From: Escherichia phage LF82-41
Direction: 5' to 3' (one strand)
DNA: 64,000 bases
Sequence record: PV660463
The notes under the pieces are model-generated. The model was not told where the DNA came from and made no database searches. It worked only from the letters and a program-made list of their open reading frames with translations. Shown here one piece after another: positions 4,232-60,799 of the stretch. The translations under genes and the position numbers were made by a program. Position 1 is the stretch's first letter. Each line of letters opens with the position of its first letter.

Positions 4232-4432
4232 TTATTCGGCTATATCAGAACGTTCAAAAAGCTCTTCAACAGTTAAACATTCAGTGTCATCTTCAATAAA
4301 GAATCGAGTCCAACACGTTGGGGCGATACAGTTATGAGTTTGTCCGGCGATAGAAGCTACACGAATAAGCTGCTGGCCGTTATCCAGAACAAATTTTTCA
4401 CCAATTTCAACATCTTTAAAAAGCTTAGCCAT
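4232..4432 (-). CDS. hypothetical protein (66 aa)
   Basis: ORF track. Confidence 0.45.
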   Translation of the reverse strand: MAKLFKDVEIGEKFVLDNGQQLIRVASIAGQTHNCIAPTCWTRFFIEDDTECLTVEELFERSDIAE

Positions 4433-4492
4433 TTTGTGTTCCTCATGTTTCAGTAAGACTACTATACCATAATCCTACCTTGTTGTAAACAA

Positions 4493-4603
4493 TTAAATTA
4501 CATTAAAATATGTTAAAGCCAACCATGTTCCAGTGAACGAACATGCAATGTAAAAAACCGTATCACAAATTGTTCTTAGTACAATAAGAAGTGCATTTTT
4601 CAT
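4493..4603 (-). CDS. micro-ORF, hydrophobic (36 aa)
   Basis: Manual translation MKNALLIVLRTICDTVFYIACSFTGTWLALTYFNVI; ATGA overlap with upstream micro-ORF. Confidence 0.25.
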   Translation of the reverse strand: MKNALLIVLRTICDTVFYIACSFTGTWLALTYFNVI

Positions 4604-4686
4604 AAGTACCTCAACACAATTGAAAATATTATACAAATCATTGGGATACTAAGCAACCATATTCCTATCCACATTTTAGAGCTCAT
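4600..4686 (-). CDS. micro-ORF, hydrophobic (28 aa)
   Basis: Manual translation MSSKMWIGIWLLSIPMICIIFSIVLRYL; ATGA overlap with stop of 4683..4946. Confidence 0.25.
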   Translation of the reverse strand: MSSKMWIGIWLLSIPMICIIFSIVLRYL

Positions 4687-4946
4687 ATCTCAACTTCCGC
4701 GAGTTCCATATATCCTTTGTTGATAACCTCTTTAAGGTCTTTAGAAAGAATAACATTAAAATGGTCGTTCATATGCCCGTTAACCAGACGAGTTATTTCG
4801 GCTTCAGATGACATATAAGGCACGTCCGAGTCCCAATGAGATAGACCTAAATGAGTATAAATCATCCCTTCGTCATCTGCGGTGTTGTACATTGAAACAA
4901 ACTCACCAGTCACTTTATGTTTTGCGTAGAAAAATTTAAATTTCAT
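4683..4946 (-). CDS. hypothetical protein (87 aa)
   Basis: ORF track. Confidence 0.5.
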   Translation of the reverse strand: MKFKFFYAKHKVTGEFVSMYNTADDEGMIYTHLGLSHWDSDVPYMSSEAEITRLVNGHMNDHFNVILSKDLKEVINKGYMELAEVEI

Positions 4947-5836: not shown

Positions 5837-6784
5837 TTATTCTGCAAATAATTCAGTAACGTCTGAAATTACTTCATAACGACAAGTACGCATCTTAGCA
5901 TCACCGTAGTCAACCGGGATGGATACAACATCACGTGGATGAACTTTAACCTTAACAACTTTATCTGAGCTTGAACCAAAGTGGCGAATATAAGATTTAG
6001 CACAAACATGGAGACCGCGAGAACAGGTTTGAGTATCATCGTCGTTAACTCGAGTACGAGGCATTGAAACAACTTTACCTGGGGAGTTATCAAATGTACC
6101 ACTATAGCAGTCTAAATAGTCCTTACGAACTACTTTCCATGCATAGAAATACCCATCTTCAGTGATTTCAATATCGTTTGCAACCAAGAAGTCGAATAAA
6201 CGTTGTACAGCTTTTTCGCTTGGGTTTTCTAACAGGTTTTCAAGGAACGGCAGATAGAATTTAAAGTCTTCGCCTTTTTCCATAGAATCAATAATACGAT
6301 TAACCAGGCCAGAACGAATCTCTATACCTTGATAAAATAAACTACCACCTTCAATAACAACATTACCATCAACAAACTTACTAATAGCTTTCTTGATGTT
6401 AATAAGTTCGACAGCTTTACTAAGGTTTCCTGCGACCAGATTAGCTTTAATTTCTTCAAAATTTGCATGACTTGATGGGGTCGCATTGTATGCTACGCGT
6501 CCTTCAATAATTGAAATAAATTTAGATGACGCGTTCCATACGATTTCAGGACGATGTCCGCCGATAATAGGTTCATCATTTTCTGGAACTTCTTCGATTA
6601 CATAAGAGGCATCGTTTGATTCAGGGACAACGCCTTCTGCTTTAAAATTCTTAACAATCTTACGAAGAGTATCTGTTGAAATGTCGAAGTAATCGGCAAT
6701 TTCTTTACGAGTCCATTTGCCTGATTCAACCAGGCCGTAAGCTTCTAACTGTTCTTCTTGGGACAAGCATTTGATATTGTACAT
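5837..6784 (-). CDS. rIIB: rIIB rapid-lysis/membrane-integrity protein
   Basis: 315 aa; directly downstream of rIIA; N-terminal MYNIKCLSQEEQLEAYGLVESGKWTRKEIADYF consistent with rIIB. Confidence 0.8.
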   Translation of the reverse strand: MYNIKCLSQEEQLEAYGLVESGKWTRKEIADYFDISTDTLRKIVKNFKAEGVVPESNDASYVIEEVPENDEPIIGGHRPEIVWNASSKFISIIEGRVAYNATPSSHANFEEIKANLVAGNLSKAVELINIKKAISKFVDGNVVIEGGSLFYQGIEIRSGLVNRIIDSMEKGEDFKFYLPFLENLLENPSEKAVQRLFDFLVANDIEITEDGYFYAWKVVRKDYLDCYSGTFDNSPGKVVSMPRTRVNDDDTQTCSRGLHVCAKSYIRHFGSSSDKVVKVKVHPRDVVSIPVDYGDAKMRTCRYEVISDVTELFAE

Positions 6785-6793
6785 AATGTTTCC

Positions 6794-9007
6794 TTATTTA
6801 GCCGCTTCCACGGCCTTCATGAATTTAACGATTTGAGCGACCTGTTCTTTTGAAAGAGTACCACGTCGTCCCATGTATTCTGACACAATATGATAATTGG
6901 TTTCGAATTCAATAACCATTTTATCATCATTATCGTAAGCATTATCTTTAAGCTTATCGAAAATTTTAGCACACAATTCTAACTTCTTATTCAGGTCTGT
7001 ATTAGTAGCACCTGCGAATCGATTCCATCCCCAGCGATTATTTACTGTGGAGAGTTTTGCAAAGTCTTTACTGATTTCTTTGTTCTTAGAGCTAAAATAC
7101 TTACTAAGGAAGTTAAGCTCTTCATTACGAGTAATATGGTTTAGATAGGGCTGTGCTCTACGACTTGGTGATACATACTCATCATAATCCACTTTATCGA
7201 TTAGCGTAATATAGTCATTAATTGATTTTTCGAACAAGCATTCTACTTCACCAAGTTTACGAACTTTCTTAGCAATCTGTGGACGAACTACAGTGAACTC
7301 TTTAATACCTGACAAATCAGCAATACGAGTCAAGAAATTGGAGTCATAGTTCAACCAACCTTTATCTGCATCAAGACATTCAGCATTAGAACGATTACGA
7401 ACTATAGCATAACCTTGGATTTCATCTGCTTCACTTGCCGGAATAAAGAGGTCTTCTGATACCCAAACATCGTTTTCATTCTTAAAGAATCGATGAGCAC
7501 TTGGCGATTTAGGACGAGGCTCATTAGTTCGTTTCCTGACTTCAATCCATGGCTTAACGATTTGTAAAAGCTCTGAAGTCTTGTACATGTTAATGTTGTC
7601 GCCATCAAAGATAACTTTAAGGCGTTCCAGAAGTTTCATTGCATCTTCGTCTGTAGGGTCAACGAATAGTACGCTTTTACCAAAACCGCGTGGAACTTTA
7701 CCAGTTAATTTAACCTCGTCTTTAGACATTTCAATTGAATTAAGAGCTCGCATTAATGGAACGCGTCCCTTAACGTCGTCAATAACAATTTCAACGTTTT
7801 TAATGTTAATGCCAATCAGACTGTTAATTGAAATGGTTGATGATGAGCTACCACTTTCACGAATACGACGAAGACGAGGGGATTCAACGATATCGTATAC
7901 GACACCAAGATTACACCACTCAGGCCCCATTTTAAAACGTTTGTACAACTCAGAATAAGTTAGTTGTTCTTTAGAGTATTTCAGTGATTCAATATTAGAC
8001 CCAGCCTTTTCCATGTATTTACGAGCGGTATAGCCAAGAGAATCAATTTCACGGAACACATGACGCGGGTATTTACAATCAATCCATTTCTTAGAATCTT
8101 CAGCAAATAATTTTGCATCAATTTCTGCAACACGTTTATGGATATTTGCTACTGTACGTTTATCAAATGACAATGCTTCACGAGACGGGGCTACATCTAG
8201 TTCACCCATAGGGAATTTAATATAAGCTGTAGTGCATCGTGTCATCATCCATGTTTGTTCTTTAATAACACTTCCGATTGGATATACAATACCACCGTAA
8301 ACAGCCATGATATTACCGCGTTCACCCCATGGAGCTTCCTTGGCCAAATATACATCGTCAAATTCAGGAAAGTATTTAATATCTTTAACACCACGAACTT
8401 CTGCAATATCACCTAGAGGACGCATAACATAAGCAATTTCAGATGCGAACTTTTCAAAATCTTCCGGGTTAACCGGTACAACTACTTCTACACCCGTACG
8501 GTCATCAGGACCCATCTTATCTACAAAGGTCGGCTTAATCTGTGGACCTGTGTCATCTTGGTAGATTACGTAACCACGAACTTCACCGTTGTGATAAGAC
8601 GTAAGGTTAAACGTATCGGTATATGCTAATGGAGCTTTAGAGCCGAGTCCGAATCCACCAATGAAATCGTTACTCGATGTTTTAGTTGAAGCAAAATATG
8701 AGTTATAAATTCCTGGCTCTTCGTCATTACCTCGAATGGTGAAATCGCTCATACCAGGACCAAAGTCTCGAACTACAAAGCGCGGGTCTAACCGACCTGG
8801 AGCTTGAACAATAAACTTATCAGTGCAACCGTTAAGAATTTGTCCATCGATACAGTTTGTAATTAATTCACGTACACAAGCCAATTCTTTGTTTGTATAA
8901 AGGTCATTAGACAAAATCTTATAAACTTTGCTATTGCCTTGAATAGTGAATGCTGTGCTCTTACCACCTGAACCAATAATAGTTTCTTTAGCCGTTTCAA
9001 TAATCAT
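6794..9007 (-). CDS. rIIA: rIIA protein
   Basis: 737 aa; N-terminal GHKL-type ATPase-like region; T4 rIIA size and gene order. Confidence 0.85.
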   Translation of the reverse strand: MIIETAKETIIGSGGKSTAFTIQGNSKVYKILSNDLYTNKELACVRELITNCIDGQILNGCTDKFIVQAPGRLDPRFVVRDFGPGMSDFTIRGNDEEPGIYNSYFASTKTSSNDFIGGFGLGSKAPLAYTDTFNLTSYHNGEVRGYVIYQDDTGPQIKPTFVDKMGPDDRTGVEVVVPVNPEDFEKFASEIAYVMRPLGDIAEVRGVKDIKYFPEFDDVYLAKEAPWGERGNIMAVYGGIVYPIGSVIKEQTWMMTRCTTAYIKFPMGELDVAPSREALSFDKRTVANIHKRVAEIDAKLFAEDSKKWIDCKYPRHVFREIDSLGYTARKYMEKAGSNIESLKYSKEQLTYSELYKRFKMGPEWCNLGVVYDIVESPRLRRIRESGSSSSTISINSLIGINIKNVEIVIDDVKGRVPLMRALNSIEMSKDEVKLTGKVPRGFGKSVLFVDPTDEDAMKLLERLKVIFDGDNINMYKTSELLQIVKPWIEVRKRTNEPRPKSPSAHRFFKNENDVWVSEDLFIPASEADEIQGYAIVRNRSNAECLDADKGWLNYDSNFLTRIADLSGIKEFTVVRPQIAKKVRKLGEVECLFEKSINDYITLIDKVDYDEYVSPSRRAQPYLNHITRNEELNFLSKYFSSKNKEISKDFAKLSTVNNRWGWNRFAGATNTDLNKKLELCAKIFDKLKDNAYDNDDKMVIEFETNYHIVSEYMGRRGTLSKEQVAQIVKFMKAVEAAK

Positions 9008-14225: not shown

Positions 14226-14645
14226 TTATGCAAAAGATGCTGGACAATATTTTTTGATTTGGAACTCAGGAACTACCATGAACTGTCCAGCGAAAACGAT
14301 GTTATAAAGCTTAACACCATCTTCTACCCAACGGTCGCTAATAAATCCGGCTATTTGCTTAGTTTTCCATGGCGTTCCATCAGTTGCAGCATCAATAGTA
14401 AATTCATGGTCTTTTACAACTAAAACAGACCTGCATAGTTTCCATTTGAACGCTTTTTCTTCTGGTTCAATGAATTGGCTTTTAACGTAACCAATGTTGC
14501 CATCAGCATCACGAACTTTAACTTCATTGCGACCAAAAACAGGATCACTTACATAAAGAACTTCAACCAACTTACCAGCAACTTTAGAGCGAGAAGCATC
14601 CGATACGTGTACGTAATCACCAATAGAGAGATTTACAATATTCAT
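14226..14645 (-). CDS. paralog family protein 1 (139 aa)
   Basis: Shares SASRSK.AG.LVEV and FISD.WVEDG.KLYNIVF blocks with 14655..15110. Confidence 0.55.
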   Translation of the reverse strand: MNIVNLSIGDYVHVSDASRSKVAGKLVEVLYVSDPVFGRNEVKVRDADGNIGYVKSQFIEPEEKAFKWKLCRSVLVVKDHEFTIDAATDGTPWKTKQIAGFISDRWVEDGVKLYNIVFAGQFMVVPEFQIKKYCPASFA

Positions 14646-14654
14646 AATAATTCC

Positions 14655-15110
14655 TTAAGCTTTACGAGGAGACACATAGCGAGTGATTTCAGATTCTTTA
14701 ACAACTCGGAAGTCACCTAAGAATACGATATTGTATAACTTTTCACCATCTTCAACCCATTGGTCACTAATGAAGCCACACATAATATCAGTTTTGTTTG
14801 GATAACCGTATTCATCGATGAAGTCAAATTCTTTATCAGTCTGGAATTCAACACCTTTGCAAAGGGCCCATTTGAACTGTACATTGGGTTCAGTAGAAGC
14901 AAAATGAGCGCTCACATGAGTTTCCAAGAATTTAGGACTTACGTAAGCGTACTGAGTTTCAGTTTTTCCAGAACTAGGAATGATTCGAACTTTAACTTCT
15001 TTAACACGACCAGTACCATTAGTACGAAGTCCTACCACTTCAACTAGACGACCTGCAGCTTTAGAACGAGATGCAGACGATACACGCTTAATTTCACCAA
15101 TAGTAATCAT
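14655..15110 (-). CDS. paralog family protein 2 (about 151 aa, start at internal Met)
   Basis: Paralog of 14226..14645; family-2 promoter overlaps the track ORF N-terminus. Confidence 0.55.
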   Translation of the reverse strand: MITIGEIKRVSSASRSKAAGRLVEVVGLRTNGTGRVKEVKVRIIPSSGKTETQYAYVSPKFLETHVSAHFASTEPNVQFKWALCKGVEFQTDKEFDFIDEYGYPNKTDIMCGFISDQWVEDGEKLYNIVFLGDFRVVKESEITRYVSPRKA

Positions 15111-15138
15111 AATTTCTCTCTCTTTGTTTAAGTTGAAT

Positions 15139-15170
15139 TCATTATACTCCATCCGTCCTTGGATGTACAA
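15139..15170 (-). promoter_or_regulatory. early-type promoter, family 2 (TTGTACA...GGAGTATAAT)
   Basis: minus-strand TATAAT at 15141-15146 with TTGTAC about 18 nt upstream. Confidence 0.5.
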
Positions 15171-15172
15171 CA

Positions 15173-15667
15173 TTAATTAAGGATATTAACCACAGCACTA
15201 CGTGGAACTACACTAAAATCACCTGCATGAACAACGTTCAGAAGTTCAACACCGTCTTCAATCCACTGATCAGTTACCCATCCATTTACTGGACCAGCGA
15301 ATGGTCGTCGAATTGAAACATATTTACACAACAAATCAGTAGGCTCAATAGGCTTAATCAGAGTACCATACATACAAGCGATATCCATATCAATACAGAT
15401 GTCTTTAACAGGTTCTACTTCTTCAATCAACAGTTCAAAGTCGGTGCTTGGAAGGGCGGTAGTAGAAATTGTACCATATGAATTTTTAATTTCTAAGAAT
15501 AACCAAGGGCCTTCAACTTGTTTGATGAAGTTAACAATAGTGAAACTATTACCTTGAGTGGCACCTAAAATTTCACAAAACTTTTCATAAGCTCGCACTG
15601 AAGCACCGTACCAGTTGATTTGTTTTTCATCTTTCAGGATGTAAGTAGCCGTGGTATTGATATTCAT
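15173..15667 (-). CDS. paralog family protein 3 (164 aa)
   Basis: C-terminus GWVTDQWIEDGVELLNVVHAGDFSVV aligns with the other two paralogs. Confidence 0.55.
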   Translation of the reverse strand: MNINTTATYILKDEKQINWYGASVRAYEKFCEILGATQGNSFTIVNFIKQVEGPWLFLEIKNSYGTISTTALPSTDFELLIEEVEPVKDICIDMDIACMYGTLIKPIEPTDLLCKYVSIRRPFAGPVNGWVTDQWIEDGVELLNVVHAGDFSVVPRSAVVNILN

Positions 15668-15693
15668 AATATTTTCCTCTCGTTAAGATAGGT

Positions 15694-15725
15694 TCATTAT
15701 ACTCCAACCATCCTTGGTTGTAAAC
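15694..15725 (-). promoter_or_regulatory. early-type promoter, family 2
   Basis: GTTTAC (15720-15725) - N18 - TATAAT (15696-15701) on minus strand. Confidence 0.5.
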
Positions 15726-54640: not shown

Positions 54641-54820
54641 TTAGTAAACGTTATAAAAGCCTCGATGGAAACGCTTATACTGACGAATCATTCTTTTAGT
54701 AGGACGAGTTTCTGAAATAATTGAAGTCCTCATATTTGGATTGTTTGGGGCCCCAATCATAATAAATTTCCAAGATTTTTGCCCATTTTTTCTTTCACCA
54801 TAAAATAGTTCAGTTTTCAT
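54641..54820 (-). CDS. small basic protein, paralog A (59 aa)
   Basis: Manual translation MKTELFYGERKNGQKSWKFIMIGAPNNPNMRTSIISETRPTKRMIRQYKRFHRGFYNVY; paralog of 55245..55442. Confidence 0.4.
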   Translation of the reverse strand: MKTELFYGERKNGQKSWKFIMIGAPNNPNMRTSIISETRPTKRMIRQYKRFHRGFYNVY

Positions 54821-55244: not shown

Positions 55245-55442
55245 TCAATATTCTCTATAAAAGTTACGATGAGAACGTTTAGCTTTGCGAAGCTGACGTT
55301 TAGTAGGACGAACTGTAAATGGTTGTCCAGAGAAAAAATTCGGATCGGTTTTAATAAGCAAATACCAATCATGCTTGCCATTTTTTAATAAACGGTACAA
55401 TAATTTAACTTGCATAATAATCTCTTCCCATTTCCATATCAA
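55245..55442 (-). CDS. small basic protein, paralog B
   Basis: KNGKHDW...RPTKRQLRKAKRSHRNFY aligns with paralog A. Confidence 0.4.
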   Translation of the reverse strand: MIWKWEEIIMQVKLLYRLLKNGKHDWYLLIKTDPNFFSGQPFTVRPTKRQLRKAKRSHRNFYREY

Positions 55443-55918: not shown

Positions 55919-56215
55919 TTATTGTTCTACCCATGAACAAGAGACTTCAAAATCAGGACCACCGTATTCCCAGTGATATTCACCAACAGGAATCCAGTCA
56001 CCGTGCTCGTTTTCTTCATAGTCCTCAGGCTCAAGGCCAACGAATCGCCATTGGACACCAATGATTCGATTACCCATCATTACTCGAAATTCGCCCCATG
56101 GATTATCGATAGCATACTGAATATCGTTCTTGGCACGAGAGCACATTTCTTGATATAATAAAGCTTCTAATTCACCCTGGTCATAAGGGCCAGGGAAAGT
56201 TAAATCAATACTCAT
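55919..56215 (-). CDS. hypothetical protein (98 aa)
   Basis: ORF track. Confidence 0.45.
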   Translation of the reverse strand: MSIDLTFPGPYDQGELEALLYQEMCSRAKNDIQYAIDNPWGEFRVMMGNRIIGVQWRFVGLEPEDYEENEHGDWIPVGEYHWEYGGPDFEVSCSWVEQ

Positions 56216-56475
56216 TTAAAATATTCTCGTAGTTGGTCAAATCCACCAATGTGACTTCCGTCAGGAGCAAACACTTGAGGCATAGTCAATCCAACTTGTG
56301 ATTCACGTCCAAGCTTAACCAGAAGCTCAGCAATTTTCTCATCGTCGAACACACCTTTTTCCGGCATAACATTAATGAATTCGAATGGCTGTTTCTTAAC
56401 AGTCAGCAATCGTTTCGCATTATCACAATAAATGCATTTATGAATAGTAGAGTCATACCCGTACACTTTAAACAT
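56212..56475 (-). CDS. nrdC: thioredoxin/glutaredoxin NrdC
   Basis: MFKVYGYDS.IHKC.YCDNAKRLLTVKKQPFEFIN.MPEKG matches remembered T4 NrdC. Confidence 0.9.
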   Translation of the reverse strand: MFKVYGYDSTIHKCIYCDNAKRLLTVKKQPFEFINVMPEKGVFDDEKIAELLVKLGRESQVGLTMPQVFAPDGSHIGGFDQLREYFK

Positions 56476-56881
56476 TATTTTTCCTTTCATCGATTAAATA
56501 TGCAATGCCAAATACAATACATGTAATAAAACCTGTGATACAGATAGAAACCAACAACACTGTACCAAAGAACCAAATCAAGTTATCTTTAGTAGTTTGT
56601 TTGATATCCATCTCACGAATTTCTATAGCTATCGTATCACCTTTATTCAGAAGCGTATAAAACGATGGCGATACACGTCTGTCAAAAACTCGTCCTTGCT
56701 CATCTTTATAGACTGCAATAAATTCTAATTTAGAATATTTTCCTGTAGATTGGCCTGAGATTAATTCCACTACCTCCACAGGAATTACTTTAGTTTCCAT
56801 GTAAGTATTCTGGCTGTTCCAAATGAATGGAATAATAGCAAAAACTAAAGCTGTGATAAAACAACGAAGGCTATATCTCAT
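56468..56881 (-). CDS. membrane protein (137 aa)
   Basis: N- and C-terminal hydrophobic segments. Confidence 0.45.
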   Translation of the reverse strand: MRYSLRCFITALVFAIIPFIWNSQNTYMETKVIPVEVVELISGQSTGKYSKLEFIAVYKDEQGRVFDRRVSPSFYTLLNKGDTIAIEIREMDIKQTTKDNLIWFFGTVLLVSICITGFITCIVFGIAYLIDERKNNV

Positions 56882-57186
56882 TATAATGTTCTCTCAAAAT
56901 TGTGGAAGCATTTACGGCATTTCAATTTCAAGTTATCAGTGGTCCAGTTAACCAGTTGGACTTGGATAGTTCCACATTCCGGACATGGGTGTTTTGCTGC
57001 CGATTTGGCAGCATTTTCACGTCGTTCAACCATTTTCATGATTTCGTTCCATGCCGGAGGAACGAACTCTTCTTCATCGTAGATATTATCTCGCTGAACA
57101 AATTCAATCTTTGAACTATCATCAATAAACTTAACTAAGCCATGATTAGTGCTCATATCAATATCCTCTAGAAGACGTAGTTTCAT
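56881..57186 (-). CDS. zinc-ribbon protein (101 aa)
   Basis: CPECG...CRKC. Confidence 0.45.
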   Translation of the reverse strand: MKLRLLEDIDMSTNHGLVKFIDDSSKIEFVQRDNIYDEEEFVPPAWNEIMKMVERRENAAKSAAKHPCPECGTIQVQLVNWTTDNLKLKCRKCFHNFERTL

Positions 57187-58136
57187 TATAAAACCTCAAT
57201 GGCATTTCGTAAACCGTCCGCTTTCGCATTCAGAGCTTTTAACGATTTAGTTTGTTCTGCAATCTGGGCTTCGACTTCTTTCAGACGAGATTTGAGGTAC
57301 TCGCGTTCTTCAGCCATGATATCAACCTTTTCTGCTTTAGGTTCTTTAATAGTCTTAAGTTTATACTCGTTAGGGTTCTTCAGCTTAATTCGGGTGCGAG
57401 AACTGTATAACATTGAACCGTTATCTTCGGATTCGTCGAACGTTTCAACAACATCCATAGTCTCTAACAATGTAATAAGTTTATAAGACAATGAACGAAC
57501 GGTTTTGTTATGCTTATTAATTTCTTCAGCTTTCATGGTACCGAGATTACGTGAGTAGTAATAAGGAACCTGGATATCAATTGATAATGATGCGTTACCA
57601 TTACCAGTCGGTTTGAATACTGCAGTAACCCAATCTTTAACATGAACTTTATTTGTACGACCATCACCGCCCGTGAATAATTTACGAGAATGTTTAAAAA
57701 GCATATTCACTTGGTTATTGAATTCACAAGCAAATTTATCAGCAAATTTAGTTTCAGGAATGGTAGATAACCAATCAGCCAAATGAGTCTTTTTAACATC
57801 ATTAACAATAGTGAATTCAACCAAATCAGTTTTAGATGTCACAGATTTAATAAAGCTAGGCTTCATAAAGTTTTTAATGTTATCGCGAGCTACAGTAGAA
57901 GATAATAAACGAGAACGTTTGAACCATTGAAGCAGTGTCCCTAATGAATGAGAATACGCATTCTGAGTATCTTTACAAATATGATTTTCTTGGCCTGTGT
58001 ATGTACCAAAATCGCGAAGAATACCACTTACTACATCTCGGTGTGGAACATCAAATCCTAGTGCACCAACAGCGCGCTGGGCATGAACGTTAGCGATAAG
58101 ACCGGCAAAGTATTCAATGTAATGTGAACGTGTCAT
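57186..58136 (-). CDS. hypothetical protein with C-terminal coiled coil (316 aa)
   Basis: ORF track; own family-2 promoter; heptad-like C-terminus. Confidence 0.55.
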   Translation of the reverse strand: MTRSHYIEYFAGLIANVHAQRAVGALGFDVPHRDVVSGILRDFGTYTGQENHICKDTQNAYSHSLGTLLQWFKRSRLLSSTVARDNIKNFMKPSFIKSVTSKTDLVEFTIVNDVKKTHLADWLSTIPETKFADKFACEFNNQVNMLFKHSRKLFTGGDGRTNKVHVKDWVTAVFKPTGNGNASLSIDIQVPYYYSRNLGTMKAEEINKHNKTVRSLSYKLITLLETMDVVETFDESEDNGSMLYSSRTRIKLKNPNEYKLKTIKEPKAEKVDIMAEEREYLKSRLKEVEAQIAEQTKSLKALNAKADGLRNAIEVL

Positions 58137-58162
58137 AATATTTTCCTCTCGTTAAGATAGAT

Positions 58163-58194
58163 TCATTATACTCCAACCATCCTTGGTTGTAAAC
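58163..58194 (-). promoter_or_regulatory. early-type promoter, family 2
   Basis: GTTTAC (58189-58194) - N18 - TATAAT (58165-58170). Confidence 0.5.
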
Positions 58195-58198
58195 TGAT

Positions 58199-59158
58199 TT
58201 ATGATTTTAATGCATTCATTGCGTTAAAAAGTTTAGAGTACTGCAACTGGAGATTCGTTACAACACTTTGAGCATCACGAAGCTTAGCTTGTGCTTTGTC
58301 AAGTTCAACGGACAGTTGGTCTACAGTAGCCTTGATTTGATTGTAATGGTAATCTTCGACCGGAAGAAGGTCATTAGAAACATTTAGTTTTACTGCAGAC
58401 AGTTTGCACACATTTGGCAAACCTTTAAACATTGATTTTCCCGAAGTAGAATATGAACCTAGAACTTCAGCATTACCAATCGGGGTTGCAGTAATTGACG
58501 CTTCAAATGTTGCATTTTCCTTTTTAAGATTTTGATAGTATTCAGAGTCTTTGTGCCACCACGGCGCAGGAACCTTTTTACCAATAGATACACGAGCCTG
58601 GATAGCGATATGGCCCTTATTCTTGATAGGGTAGATAATATTAAGCTCACGAGAATAAATTGCTTTAATCTGGTGGATATTATCACCTAAAACTTCCAAC
58701 GCTTGGTGGAATACACGAGCAACGTTATCATTCTTAGGTTTATACGTAAGAGTGAACTCGTTCTCACTGATAACCATGATTTCTAACTTATCGTAAGTAT
58801 ATTTCAAATGTTTCATGTTAATTGCTTGAGGACGAATACGAGAAGCAATGGCCATCAGATTGTTAAGGTTATTCCGGAACTGCTTAGCGAAATATTGACC
58901 TTCACCGCCAATACAAAAATTACGAAGTTTCTGTTTGGCCAATAAACGGCTGAACTCACCATTTTTAATGAACTCTTTAACGGGTGTGTTAGTAACGCAT
59001 TCAAATTGGGTAAACATACGAGAAGTAATCCCATAATATGAACAGATTTCCTCAATCTCTTCAGGAGTCTTTACAGGCATACGGATAGGATTAGGTCCTG
59101 GAGTGTATGCGTTCGAGGTAAATTCTTTGATAAGTTCTCTACGTGTAATAAAAGCCAT
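58199..59158 (-). CDS. hypothetical protein with C-terminal coiled coil (319 aa)
   Basis: ORF track; own family-2 promoter. Confidence 0.55.
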   Translation of the reverse strand: MAFITRRELIKEFTSNAYTPGPNPIRMPVKTPEEIEEICSYYGITSRMFTQFECVTNTPVKEFIKNGEFSRLLAKQKLRNFCIGGEGQYFAKQFRNNLNNLMAIASRIRPQAINMKHLKYTYDKLEIMVISENEFTLTYKPKNDNVARVFHQALEVLGDNIHQIKAIYSRELNIIYPIKNKGHIAIQARVSIGKKVPAPWWHKDSEYYQNLKKENATFEASITATPIGNAEVLGSYSTSGKSMFKGLPNVCKLSAVKLNVSNDLLPVEDYHYNQIKATVDQLSVELDKAQAKLRDAQSVVTNLQLQYSKLFNAMNALKS

Positions 59159-59182
59159 TTTATATTCCTCATGTTGAAAAAT

Positions 59183-59215
59183 TTATTATACTCCAACCAT
59201 CCTTGGTTGTACATC
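59183..59215 (-). promoter_or_regulatory. early-type promoter, family 2
   Basis: TTGTACA...GGAGTATAAT on minus strand. Confidence 0.5.
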
Positions 59216-60209
59216 ATTCCTTAAGAAGTTTTACTACTTGAATAAGATTAGCTCGTTCTGTTTTATTTTTACCGTTTAAGCCTGCTAATCGTGAGATTTC
59301 ATCGTCAGTCTGTTGAATAGTTACATTAAGTTCGTTAATCAAAGCTTCAAAGTATTTGATTTGCTCAGCATGTTTTGATTCAAATTTCTGAACAGGAATA
59401 ACATCTTGGTTCAGTTCATCAATAAGGTCTTTAAGAGCATCTTCTTGGTTGATATCATATTCAACTTCTTTTATTTCTTCAAAGAGCTCGTCTTTATATC
59501 TAACGTCTTTTAGTCCTGGAGCTGGTCCTGAAATCTCTTCTTTAAGAGTACAAACATACCCAATACGGTATCCAATGCAGTCTCGCTTGATATCAACTTC
59601 GTCGATAAATCCACAATGTTTAAGACCAGAGCCGATTATGTCAAAATATCCTTGACGTCGTCCTTCAAACGTTACACGAACTACTAAGACAGTTTTACCA
59701 CCAACCTTTTGAAGCTCACATTTATAAAAGTCTGTTGAACCTGAATAACGTGGATGAGTTTTAAAGTTCATCTGACGATCTAGGCCCATTTGTAAACGTG
59801 CTGTTACGGCCATAAAACGTGTTTGGTTCTCGTTAAGATGAGCAACAATCCATTTCAAAGGCATTTTACACTGTTCACGACCGAACAAATCAGTACGTCC
59901 TAGATTACGCAGGATGTTGTTAGAGTTAATCATCGACAGAACGTTAAGTTTATTCAGCGCGCTGAAGATTCCGTCAGCCATTGATTTCCCATAACCTTTA
60001 CACGCTTTAATAAGTGCTCGCGGCAGATTAGTATAGATTTCAGACGGCATATGAAAATCAAATTTACTAGTCAGTAATTGATGAACTTGGATAGCAATTT
60101 GCTCATAATTAAGTGCTCTGCGATCGTTATGGTCTTTAAACCACACTTTAATCTGTGAAGCACATAAACCGTTAATTTCATGTTTTACCGCATCAGATGT
60201 AATGCTCAT
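59214..60209 (-). CDS. hypothetical protein with C-terminal coiled coil (331 aa)
   Basis: ORF track. Confidence 0.55.
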   Translation of the reverse strand: MSITSDAVKHEINGLCASQIKVWFKDHNDRRALNYEQIAIQVHQLLTSKFDFHMPSEIYTNLPRALIKACKGYGKSMADGIFSALNKLNVLSMINSNNILRNLGRTDLFGREQCKMPLKWIVAHLNENQTRFMAVTARLQMGLDRQMNFKTHPRYSGSTDFYKCELQKVGGKTVLVVRVTFEGRRQGYFDIIGSGLKHCGFIDEVDIKRDCIGYRIGYVCTLKEEISGPAPGLKDVRYKDELFEEIKEVEYDINQEDALKDLIDELNQDVIPVQKFESKHAEQIKYFEALINELNVTIQQTDDEISRLAGLNGKNKTERANLIQVVKLLKE

Positions 60210-60271
60210 AACTATTTCCTCAGATTGAATTGGAACTCAAAACCATTATAACCCGTCCTTGGGTAAAGCGT

Positions 60272-60799
60272 TTATGCGTGAACCGTCTTTAAACGTTCTT
60301 CAAATTTCCGAAGAGTACTAATACGTTCTGCTTTCTGTTTTGTATAGTTTGCAATACGTTCTGAAGTGAGAGCGTATCGTTCGTTTACTGTTTCTTTCAT
60401 GAAGTCAGGGATTTCACGAGAAGCTTTAATTTCATCAAACTTATCGAGTACTGCCTGGTCTTCAGCGATTAAATTTTCATACATCTCGATATCTTTCTTG
60501 ATAAACTCGATATCTTCCTGAGTTACTTTGGATAAACGAGATGCTTTATCCTTTTTGTACTGCTCGTTAGTTTCACGAGACCAGAATAATGTACGTTTTT
60601 TGTTAGTGTTTTTGTAGACTTCCACAATTCCAACTGAATCGATGATAACAATCCAATTCCAGCGAGATTTGAAAATCTGACCTCCATCCACAGTAATCTC
60701 GTTACCATAAGCAACGTCATTAAAGAACTTGCTCTGTGCTTCAGATTTAAATTTACCGTCGTTATAATTTACCAGGTTGAAAATATCTTTAGCGTTCAT
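60272..60799 (-). CDS. hypothetical protein with C-terminal coiled coil (175 aa)
   Basis: ORF track; family-1 promoter upstream. Confidence 0.5.
   Translation of the reverse strand: MNAKDIFNLVNYNDGKFKSEAQSKFFNDVAYGNEITVDGGQIFKSRWNWIVIIDSVGIVEVYKNTNKKRTLFWSRETNEQYKKDKASRLSKVTQEDIEFIKKDIEMYENLIAEDQAVLDKFDEIKASREIPDFMKETVNERYALTSERIANYTKQKAERISTLRKFEERLKTVHA

Follow-up and report, generated by a model that had tools for sequence, protein, structure and literature searches.

How do T-even phages diversify the accessory genes of their nrdC-mobD region, and what do these genes do? The closest described protein is T4 NrdC.5 (Y05A_BPT4). A T4 deletion mutant fails on cells with the ECOR17 protein Dsr1, and expression of T4 nrdC.5 by itself is enough to restore infection (Srikant et al. 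2022, PMC9391042); the Dsr1 TPR sensor is reported to recognise major capsid proteins, which are late proteins (PMC12803255). Among the neighbouring genes, Gp49.2 inhibits OLD (PMC13096335) and NrdC.1 inhibits Septu (HIDEN-SEQ preprint), while T4 nrdC.3 through nrdC.6 are classed as non-essential (HIDEN-SEQ) and T4 nrdC.1-6 are deletable (PMC9825161). The closest described regulatory element is the promoter-early stem-loop (PeSL), a sigma70-type promoter with a stem-loop in its spacer (PMC2839356, Arbiol et al. 2010; PMC4122927, Comeau et al. 2014). The PeSL consensus of the T4/PST group is TTTACW-N17-TAYWAT (PMC4122927), and variants of the middle-promoter type, promoter-middle stem-loops (PmSLs), have been described by Comeau et al. 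(PMC4122927). Here we compare with these systems three consecutive genes, nrdC.3, nrdC.5 and nrdC.6, of Escherichia phage LF82-41 (record PV660463), which lie in a 64,000-nucleotide stretch of its DNA, hereafter the window. Most of the biology of such a locus is known: accessory genes of T-even phages, PeSL cassettes and an NrdC.5 family in which anti-Dsr1 activity has been published for one member. The modest new leads are a possible NrdC.3/4/5/6 superfamily and a clean cassette polymorphism.

The locus is the Mosigvirus (RB69-like T-even) version of the T-even nrdC.3/nrdC.5/nrdC.6 array in the hyperplastic nrdC-mobD region. Over 3.4 kb, the DNA here shares 96-99% identity with many Mosigvirus genomes (98.6% with phage OLB35), and the RB69 annotation names the three open reading frames (ORFs) nrdC.3, nrdC.5 and nrdC.6. 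They lie on the minus strand, as does every gene in this part of the window, and are present at exactly the coordinates at which an earlier note on this DNA had placed three ORFs of 316, 319 and 331 residues: the nrdC.3 orthologue at 57186-58136 (316 residues, 36.0 kDa, isoelectric point 9.3, soluble), the nrdC.5 orthologue at 58199-59158 (319 residues, 36.4 kDa) and the nrdC.6 orthologue at 59214-60209 (331 residues, 38.0 kDa). Each begins with ATG and is preceded by a GAGG-type Shine-Dalgarno sequence, and none of the three proteins contains a membrane-like segment. The gene order nrdC.6 - nrdC.5 - nrdC.4/.3 is consistent across 25 loci from three genera; nrdC.4 is absent from the window phage and present in T4.

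The NrdC.5 protein of the window matches Pfam PF23882 (DUF7235) over the entire profile (positions 1-307 of 307) with 405 bits and an expectation value (E) of 3.2e-121, against a gathering score of 30 bits, and T4 NrdC.5 matches the same model with 420.6 bits (E 5.3e-126). Likewise, phrog_2351 is matched by the window protein, by T4 NrdC.5 and by the VR5 homologue. In addition to full-length Pfam and PHROG family membership, the two proteins have in common their position, a similar size, a C-terminal heptad helix (...KL.NA.NAL) and their character as products of prereplicative, non-essential genes. We regard the window NrdC.5 as a candidate anti-Dsr1 protein. The differences are considerable: blastp gives 25.6% identity over 308 residues (E 5e-11), the N-terminal ~60 residues align poorly, and the link between the two proteins is absent in tblastn at E<=1e-5. 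Furthermore, the window nrdC.5 has its own early PeSL and identical flanking repeats, whereas T4 nrdC.5 follows nrdC.6 without an intervening promoter element. The other two proteins are full-length members of the T4 NrdC.3/NrdC.4 and NrdC.6 families, respectively. NrdC.3 matches phrog_1435, which contains both T4 NrdC.3 and T4 NrdC.4, over residues 1-316 (E 5e-101), it is 56% identical to T4 NrdC.3 over 317 residues, again full length, and PF26897 is the precomputed Pfam family on all NrdC.3 homologues. NrdC.6 matches phrog_2257 (E 9.3e-127), it is 97.6% identical to RB69 NrdC.6 and ~33% identical to T4-type NrdC.6 (29% over 270 residues, E 8e-19, with T4 itself in blastp), and its homologues carry the precomputed family PF26899. 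Compared with T4 NrdC.6, the window protein contains an extra acidic insertion of ~40 residues (residues ~221-262).

We propose, with moderate confidence, that nrdC.3, nrdC.5 and nrdC.6 are non-essential prereplicative accessory genes carried on PeSL-type cassettes and that they encode stoichiometric counter-defence proteins. Each gene would be an independent regulatory cassette, nrdC.3 and nrdC.5 behind identical early PeSLs and nrdC.6 behind a middle-like element, and each product would be a soluble protein of ~36-38 kDa in which an alpha/beta body is joined through a variable, probably disordered linker to an amphipathic heptad helix at the C-terminus. The proteins would be non-enzymatic and produced ahead of the late proteins that set off host sensors, and each may act by binding and blocking host immune proteins stoichiometrically, the target of the NrdC.5 family presumably being the SIR2-TPR NADase Dsr1. 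The variable body would provide target specificity, the conserved C-terminal helix would serve oligomerisation or common docking, and recombination between repeated PeSLs could lead to the gain, loss and swapping of genes. The proposed mode resembles that of DSAD1, the anti-DSR2 protein of phage SPbeta, and of other single-protein sensor blockers, in that an early, small or medium-sized, non-enzymatic protein would act against SIR2 NADase defence. DSAD1 has no sequence or structural relationship to the NrdC.5 family, and the likeness is one of analogy only.

What is the basis for describing these genes as PeSL cassettes? The elements before nrdC.3 (58165-58193, minus strand) and nrdC.5 (59185-59213, minus strand) are recognisable as PeSLs, a known type of element. 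The first reads TTTACA-N17-TATAAT, with AACC-AAGGAT-GGTT in its spacer, and the second reads TGTACA-N17-TATAAT and contains a 26-nucleotide core identical to that of the first; they match 11 and 10 of 12 consensus positions, respectively, in a sigma70 scan. This common 26-mer, ACAACCAAGGATGGTTGGAGTATAAT, occurs in the window in three exact copies and in one copy with three mismatches, compared with none in 100 shuffles. The stem-loop element before nrdC.6 (60245-60270, minus strand) reads CGCTTTA-N13-TATAAT with an ACCC-AAGGAC-GGGT stem. It shares the CC-AAGGAY-GG core and the TATAAT with the two PeSLs, and its arrangement is kept before nrdC.6 in Dhaka-like phages. The sigma70 scan did not call this element, and its TTTAC, only 12-13 nucleotides from the -10 hexamer, lies too close for a canonical sigma70 early promoter. 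The CGCTTTA-N13-TATAAT arrangement resembles a MotA-box middle promoter of T4, and the element is probably a MotA-type, PmSL-like middle promoter. Thus, of the near-identical promoter that had been reported before each of the three genes, the claim stands for nrdC.3 and nrdC.5, which have an early-type element with an identical 26-mer, and has to be modified for nrdC.6, where the element is related and its spacing is of the middle type.

A spacer palindrome around AAGGAY is found before nrdC.3, nrdC.4, nrdC.5 and nrdC.6 in the window, T4 and Dhaka-like phages, and its stem pairs covary (AACC/GGTT, ATCC/GGAT, AGCC/GGCT, ACCC/GGGT, TACC/GGTA and CCAC/GTGG). In a set of 11 variants, which were hand-picked and have a short stem, 95.5% of the cells of the 4-bp stem are paired compared with 66% in shuffles, and double-sided stem changes number 12 compared with 3.5 expected (0 of 500 shuffles); registers slid along the sequence score 14-52%. 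The window elements are predicted promoters. Like the PeSL and PmSL cassettes of T4-type phages, they precede genes of unknown function within a hyperplastic region, and the crossover of an insertion/deletion that separates close relatives falls inside the repeat. They differ in that the stem is 4-5 bp long with a conserved CC-AAGGAY-GG core, whereas the PeSLs of RB49 and phi1 have G/C-tract stems instead, and in the Mot-box-like spacing of the element before nrdC.6.

Other occurrences and features of the PeSLs deserve a brief description. In both early PeSLs (58165-58175 and 59185-59195), GGAG stands directly between the stem and the TATAAT. GGAG is the target motif of the RegB endoribonuclease, and read-through transcripts from the upstream gene would therefore carry the stem-loop together with GGAG. 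An exact copy of the 26-nucleotide PeSL core is found at 15668-15724 (minus strand), where the leader and Shine-Dalgarno sequence match those of nrdC.3 with one mismatch over ~57 nucleotides, and a variant copy at 15141-15166 (minus strand) shows the compensatory stem change ATCC/GGAT. These copies at 15.1 and 15.7 kb precede small paralogous ORFs (14226-14645, 14655-15173 and 15173-15667), an array with the C-terminal motif ...SD(Q/R)W(V/I)EDG.(K/E)L(Y/L)N(I/V)V..G(D/Q)F.VV... in common. One GenBank record annotates the PeSL as 'possible binding site of StbAB'.

The two identical 26-nucleotide direct repeats, which are 1,020 bp apart, enclose the nrdC.5 gene in a cassette (58165-59210, minus strand) that is polymorphic for presence and absence. 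Phage F2 does not contain nrdC.5, and nrdC.3 comes next after its nrdC.6. The left flank of this junction corresponds to the nrdC.6/nrdC.5 junction of the window and the right flank to the nrdC.5/nrdC.3 junction, which places the crossover inside the repeat. The same nrdC.5-less junction is present in 21 of 155 matching Mosigvirus-type records (~14%). Gene content also differs between groups of T-even phages: Tequatroviruses contain nrdC.3,.4,.5 and.6, Mosigviruses contain.3,.5 and.6, and Dhaka/Gapriver-like phages contain.4,.5 and.6, with.3 absent. In Pinarejo, nrdC.6 is reduced to a C-terminal remnant, and ACG-C40 has kept only nrdC.6, plus an out-of-frame nrdC.5-nrdC.3 scar. This variation in gene presence and absence across T-even phages bears out the view of the region as hyperplastic. 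Sequence divergence is similarly uneven. The window and T4 proteins are 26% identical for NrdC.5 and 29% for NrdC.6, compared with 92% for NrdC, 83% for NrdC.8 and ~77-78% for NrdC.10 and NrdC.11, and this strong divergence of NrdC.5 and NrdC.6 relative to their neighbours fits arms-race genes. RB69-type NrdC.5 represents a highly diverged allele, carried on a cleanly excisable, PeSL-bounded cassette, and since this cassette is excisable and absent in ~14% of relatives it offers a natural test case for the swapping of counter-defence genes.

Individual loci show further rearrangements, and reference laboratory strains have damaged genes in the array. The ACG-C40 scar (4305-4713 of locus L005) joins approximately codon 67 of nrdC.5 to approximately codon 245 of nrdC.3, with nrdC.4 and most of nrdC.5 and nrdC.3 deleted. 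T4 NrdC.6 (NC_000866, 5567-6394 of locus L004) has 275 residues and an aberrant C-terminus compared with the 295-residue form of other Tequatroviruses; in the HIDEN-SEQ annotation of T4, nrdC.6 is an 891-nucleotide gene. RB69 NrdC.5 (6052-6954 of locus L002) has 300 residues, with a frameshift near the C-terminus, compared with the 319 residues of the window protein, and in T2 (locus L003) both nrdC.4 and nrdC.6 are split.

Are the three protein families related to one another? Pairwise BLAST among NrdC.3, NrdC.5 and NrdC.6 gives no significant match, and profile-profile comparison of shallow alignments (effective number of sequences ~1.5) is likewise non-significant. At the level of BLAST, then, the N-terminal domains do differ, as had been claimed for them; deeper profiles show a weak collinear similarity all the same. 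These profiles were built from 20-26 unique sequences per family, pooled from 25 loci in three genera that were gathered with NrdC.8 as the anchor (the NrdC.5 alignment as anchor gave two loci only). The NrdC.3/4 and NrdC.5 profiles align over 132 collinear columns with a score of 33.4 (P 9e-4, hhalign probability 23%); the best of 60 column shuffles scored 20.7 and the reversed profile 21.6. The NrdC.5 and NrdC.6 profiles score 24.2 against a null maximum of 20.3 (0 of 60 shuffles), and control comparisons with NrdC.8 give E values of 0.08-0.2. The register is the same across the three pairwise alignments at 23 of 24 positions, around a block ending ...[LI][KR]N[FL]. Furthermore, an N-terminal TRxEYI motif is common to NrdC.3, NrdC.4 and NrdC.5, and a terminal [KR]LxxAhxxLK pattern is present in all four families. 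As judged from these comparisons, common ancestry of NrdC.3, NrdC.4 and NrdC.5 is probable and common ancestry of NrdC.6 with them is possible; most likely, though the evidence is weak, the three window proteins are paralogues that have diverged strongly over their whole length, within one T-even-specific family to which T4 NrdC.4 also belongs. Separately, we note that the linker motif (A/T)L(E/K)DLIDELN occurs in Dhaka-type NrdC.4 (loci L014 and L021, residues ~262-292) and in Mosig-type NrdC.6 (residues 258-268) at an equivalent position, in both cases immediately ahead of the C-terminal helix; this sharing could reflect mosaicism or common descent.

Each of the three proteins ends in a heptad-periodic helix, and the coiled-coil-like C-terminal tails described in the earlier note are upheld by heptad scores, by shuffles and, for NrdC.3 and NrdC.5, by AlphaFold2. 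The best heptad window lies at the C-terminus in every case (residues 268-314 in NrdC.3, 267-319 in NrdC.5 and 278-309 in NrdC.6), and 0 of 200 shuffles reach the score, which is home-made and not a calibrated coiled-coil predictor. Hydrophobic residues occupy 12 of 14 a and d positions in NrdC.3, 14 of 15 in NrdC.5 and 10 of 15 in NrdC.6; measured against a threshold of at least four uninterrupted heptads with hydrophobic a and d positions in a predicted helix, the tails pass as coiled-coil-like, with a Gly-rich break in that of NrdC.6. Among the 76 window ORFs of at least 100 residues, the NrdC.3 tail ranks first and the NrdC.5 tail second. AlphaFold2 predicts a single long helix at residues 275-315 of NrdC.3 and 268-318 of NrdC.5, with a predicted local distance difference test score (pLDDT) of 63-84, and few other stretches of the models reach this moderate confidence. 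On the basis of the heptad score and AlphaFold2, the C-terminal heptad helices are encoded at 57189-57335 (NrdC.3, residues 268-316) and 58202-58360 (NrdC.5, residues 267-319), both on the minus strand. The C-terminal region of NrdC.6 (59217-59378, minus strand) consists of the heptad helix at residues 278-309, a Gly-rich break and a short terminal helix, ...LIQVVKLLKE. The tail is among the best-conserved segments within each family. For example, residues 276-316 of NrdC.3 are mostly invariant in family members down to ~58% overall identity, and residues 285-317 of NrdC.5 contain 18 invariant positions even in comparison with T4 NrdC.5. A function common to these proteins would most likely reside in the conserved C-terminal helix.

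A number of results weigh against our proposal that these are cassette-borne counter-defence proteins of common descent. Experimental anti-defence activity within the families is that of T4 NrdC.5 only, with none for Mosigvirus members or for NrdC.3, NrdC.4 or NrdC.6 of any phage, and the window NrdC.5 is only 26% identical to the T4 protein. When a deep hidden Markov model (HMM) of NrdC.5 was compared with 1.84 billion representative proteins, the search reached its own subfamily only and no T4-type members; because of this result and the low identity to T4, a conserved function of NrdC.5 is not assured. The HIDEN-SEQ comparison rows covered here for T4 nrdC.3-.6 are not significant, with adjusted values of 1.0. 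AlphaFold2, run on shallow alignments, produced poor models with a mean pLDDT of 41 for NrdC.5 and 57 for NrdC.3, and Foldseek searches of BFVD returned orthologues and no other reliable match. As for descent, the hhalign probability between families is 23% at best, the score of 18.9 between the NrdC.3/4 and NrdC.6 profiles is not separable from the null (1 of 60 shuffles), and the TRxEYI and terminal motifs were recognised post hoc, after the data had been seen. In addition, a tail-only HMM of each family did not detect the tails of the other families, and for this reason what might have been called a shared tail module is better described as a short post-hoc motif combined with heptad character. 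The notion of a modular family, with different N-terminal domains mounted on a common tail, is accordingly set aside in favour of whole-length divergence, to which the TRxEYI motif, the mid-protein block in one register and the end-aligned helix point.

The suggestion that the three genes encode anti-defence effectors draws on the membership of nrdC.5 in the family of T4 NrdC.5, which overcomes Dsr1, on the anti-defence genes nearby and on the non-essential status of the T4 genes; in NrdC.3, NrdC.6 and the diverged window NrdC.5 the role is a putative one. A broader version, possible though on the doubtful side, is that NrdC.3, NrdC.4, NrdC.5 and NrdC.6 form one fast-diversifying paralogous family of sensor-blocking counter-defence proteins, built from a body for specificity, a flexible linker and, at the C-terminus, a conserved coiled-coil helix. 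Each paralogue or genus allele would act against a different host sensor, a Dsr1-like SIR2-TPR protein being the first known target, and the PeSL cassettes would let T-even phages gain, lose and exchange the genes as an anti-immunity array. If both the paralogy and the anti-defence roles are real, T-even phages possess immune antagonists in the form of a small multigene family, which would help to account for the differing host ranges of therapeutic T4-like phages. Because NrdC.3, NrdC.4 and NrdC.6 are probably related to NrdC.5 and have its architecture, they are priority candidates for new anti-defence activities.

Could the three genes instead be unrelated orphan ORFs that end in amphipathic helices by chance, with functions in host take-over (transcription, nucleoid or metabolism) and with T4-type NrdC.5 as the only anti-defence member? 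We consider this rather unlikely. It would account for the non-significant pairwise BLAST and shallow-profile comparisons, for the failure of the tail HMMs across families and for the great distance between the window NrdC.5 and that of T4, and it gains from NrdC.8, a well-conserved protein that has a heptad tail of third rank; since NrdC.8 also ends in one, heptad tails are not unique to NrdC.3, NrdC.5 and NrdC.6. Set against it are the Pfam and PHROG models, which join T4-type and RB69-type NrdC.5 over their full length, the deeper profiles, which are collinear, mutually consistent and above shuffled nulls, and the N- and C-terminal motifs held in common. The genes are also non-essential on the laboratory host and lie inside an island of proven anti-defence genes. 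The opposite extreme, in which the C-terminal helices bring the three proteins together in a single hetero-oligomeric coiled-coil complex that works as one machine, takes its appeal from the adjacency of the genes, the similar sizes of the products and the heptad helix with a similar terminal pattern in each. We judge it improbable because gene content varies so freely: nrdC.5 is missing in 21 of 155 Mosigvirus-type records, nrdC.3 is missing in Dhaka-like phages, ACG-C40 has only nrdC.6, and T4 has four such genes. Moreover, one member each in the T4 and RB69 reference strains has a frameshifted tail, and plasmid-expressed T4 nrdC.5 alone suffices against Dsr1 (PMC9391042).

A housekeeping function, with the three proteins thioredoxin-like or otherwise engaged in nucleotide metabolism, is hardly credible. 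It is suggested by the labels 'thioredoxin' and 'Thioredoxin, phage-associated' on many GenBank records of these genes and by the adjoining nrdC, nrdD and nrdG. None of the three proteins, however, has a thioredoxin or glutaredoxin match in Pfam, NCBIfam or PDB, for which reason we reject the annotation; the true glutaredoxin NrdC is a separate 92-residue ORF at 56212-56490; and the genes are non-essential, deletable and confined to enterobacterial T-even phages. The widespread thioredoxin annotation is thus unsupported. Homologues of NrdC.2 through NrdC.8 are often mislabelled in this way in GenBank, apparently by carry-over of the gene name. The distribution of the NrdC.3, NrdC.5 and NrdC.6 families is narrow, being limited to enterobacterial T-even phages: homology searches of 5.8 billion proteins returned close T-even relatives only, PDB sequence searches with the three proteins gave no match, and NCBIfam and PADLOC gave sub-threshold coiled-coil noise only. 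At E<=1e-5, tblastn finds 745 records for NrdC.8, 741 for NrdC.6, 653 for NrdC.3 and 554 for NrdC.4, and for NrdC.5 it finds 548 with a T4-type query and 137 with a Mosig-type query.

For NrdC.3 only, Foldseek searches of BFVD also listed weak matches (E 1e-4 to 9e-3, template-modelling (TM) score <=0.24) to ~350-residue proteins of Erwinia phage Cronus and Serratia phages PS2 and CBH8 and to one further entry. The top Foldseek matches of the NrdC.3 model in PDB are to the H-NOX heme-sensor domain (E 3e-3 to 3e-2, TM score <=0.25, root-mean-square deviation 17-19 A), and we rejected this candidate as unreliable given the quality of the model. The order of helices and strands is loosely alike in the two, and the confidence of the model is too low for this to be trusted.

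Finally, we describe the genes on either side of the array. On one side lie nrdD, gene 49 (endonuclease VII), pin, nrdC (glutaredoxin), nrdC.7 and nrdC.2, and on the other side lie nrdC.8, nrdC.9, nrdC.10 (AAA-type) and nrdC.11 (nucleotidyltransferase). NrdC.8 (175 residues, 60272-60799, minus strand) has a heptad-like C-terminal helix that ranks third of the 76 ORFs for tail periodicity and, unlike its neighbours, is highly conserved, with 83% identity to T4; it is reported to be down-regulated in DRT1-expressing cells (PMC13275509). The pin-like gene is flanked by two small ORFs at 54641-54820 and 55245-55442 (both minus strand), which encode proteins of 59 and 65 residues. Their basic tails, ...RPTKRMIRQYKRFHRGFYNVY and ...RPTKRQLRKAKRSHRNFYREY, are similar, suggesting that this hyperplastic region contains a further pair of small paralogues.

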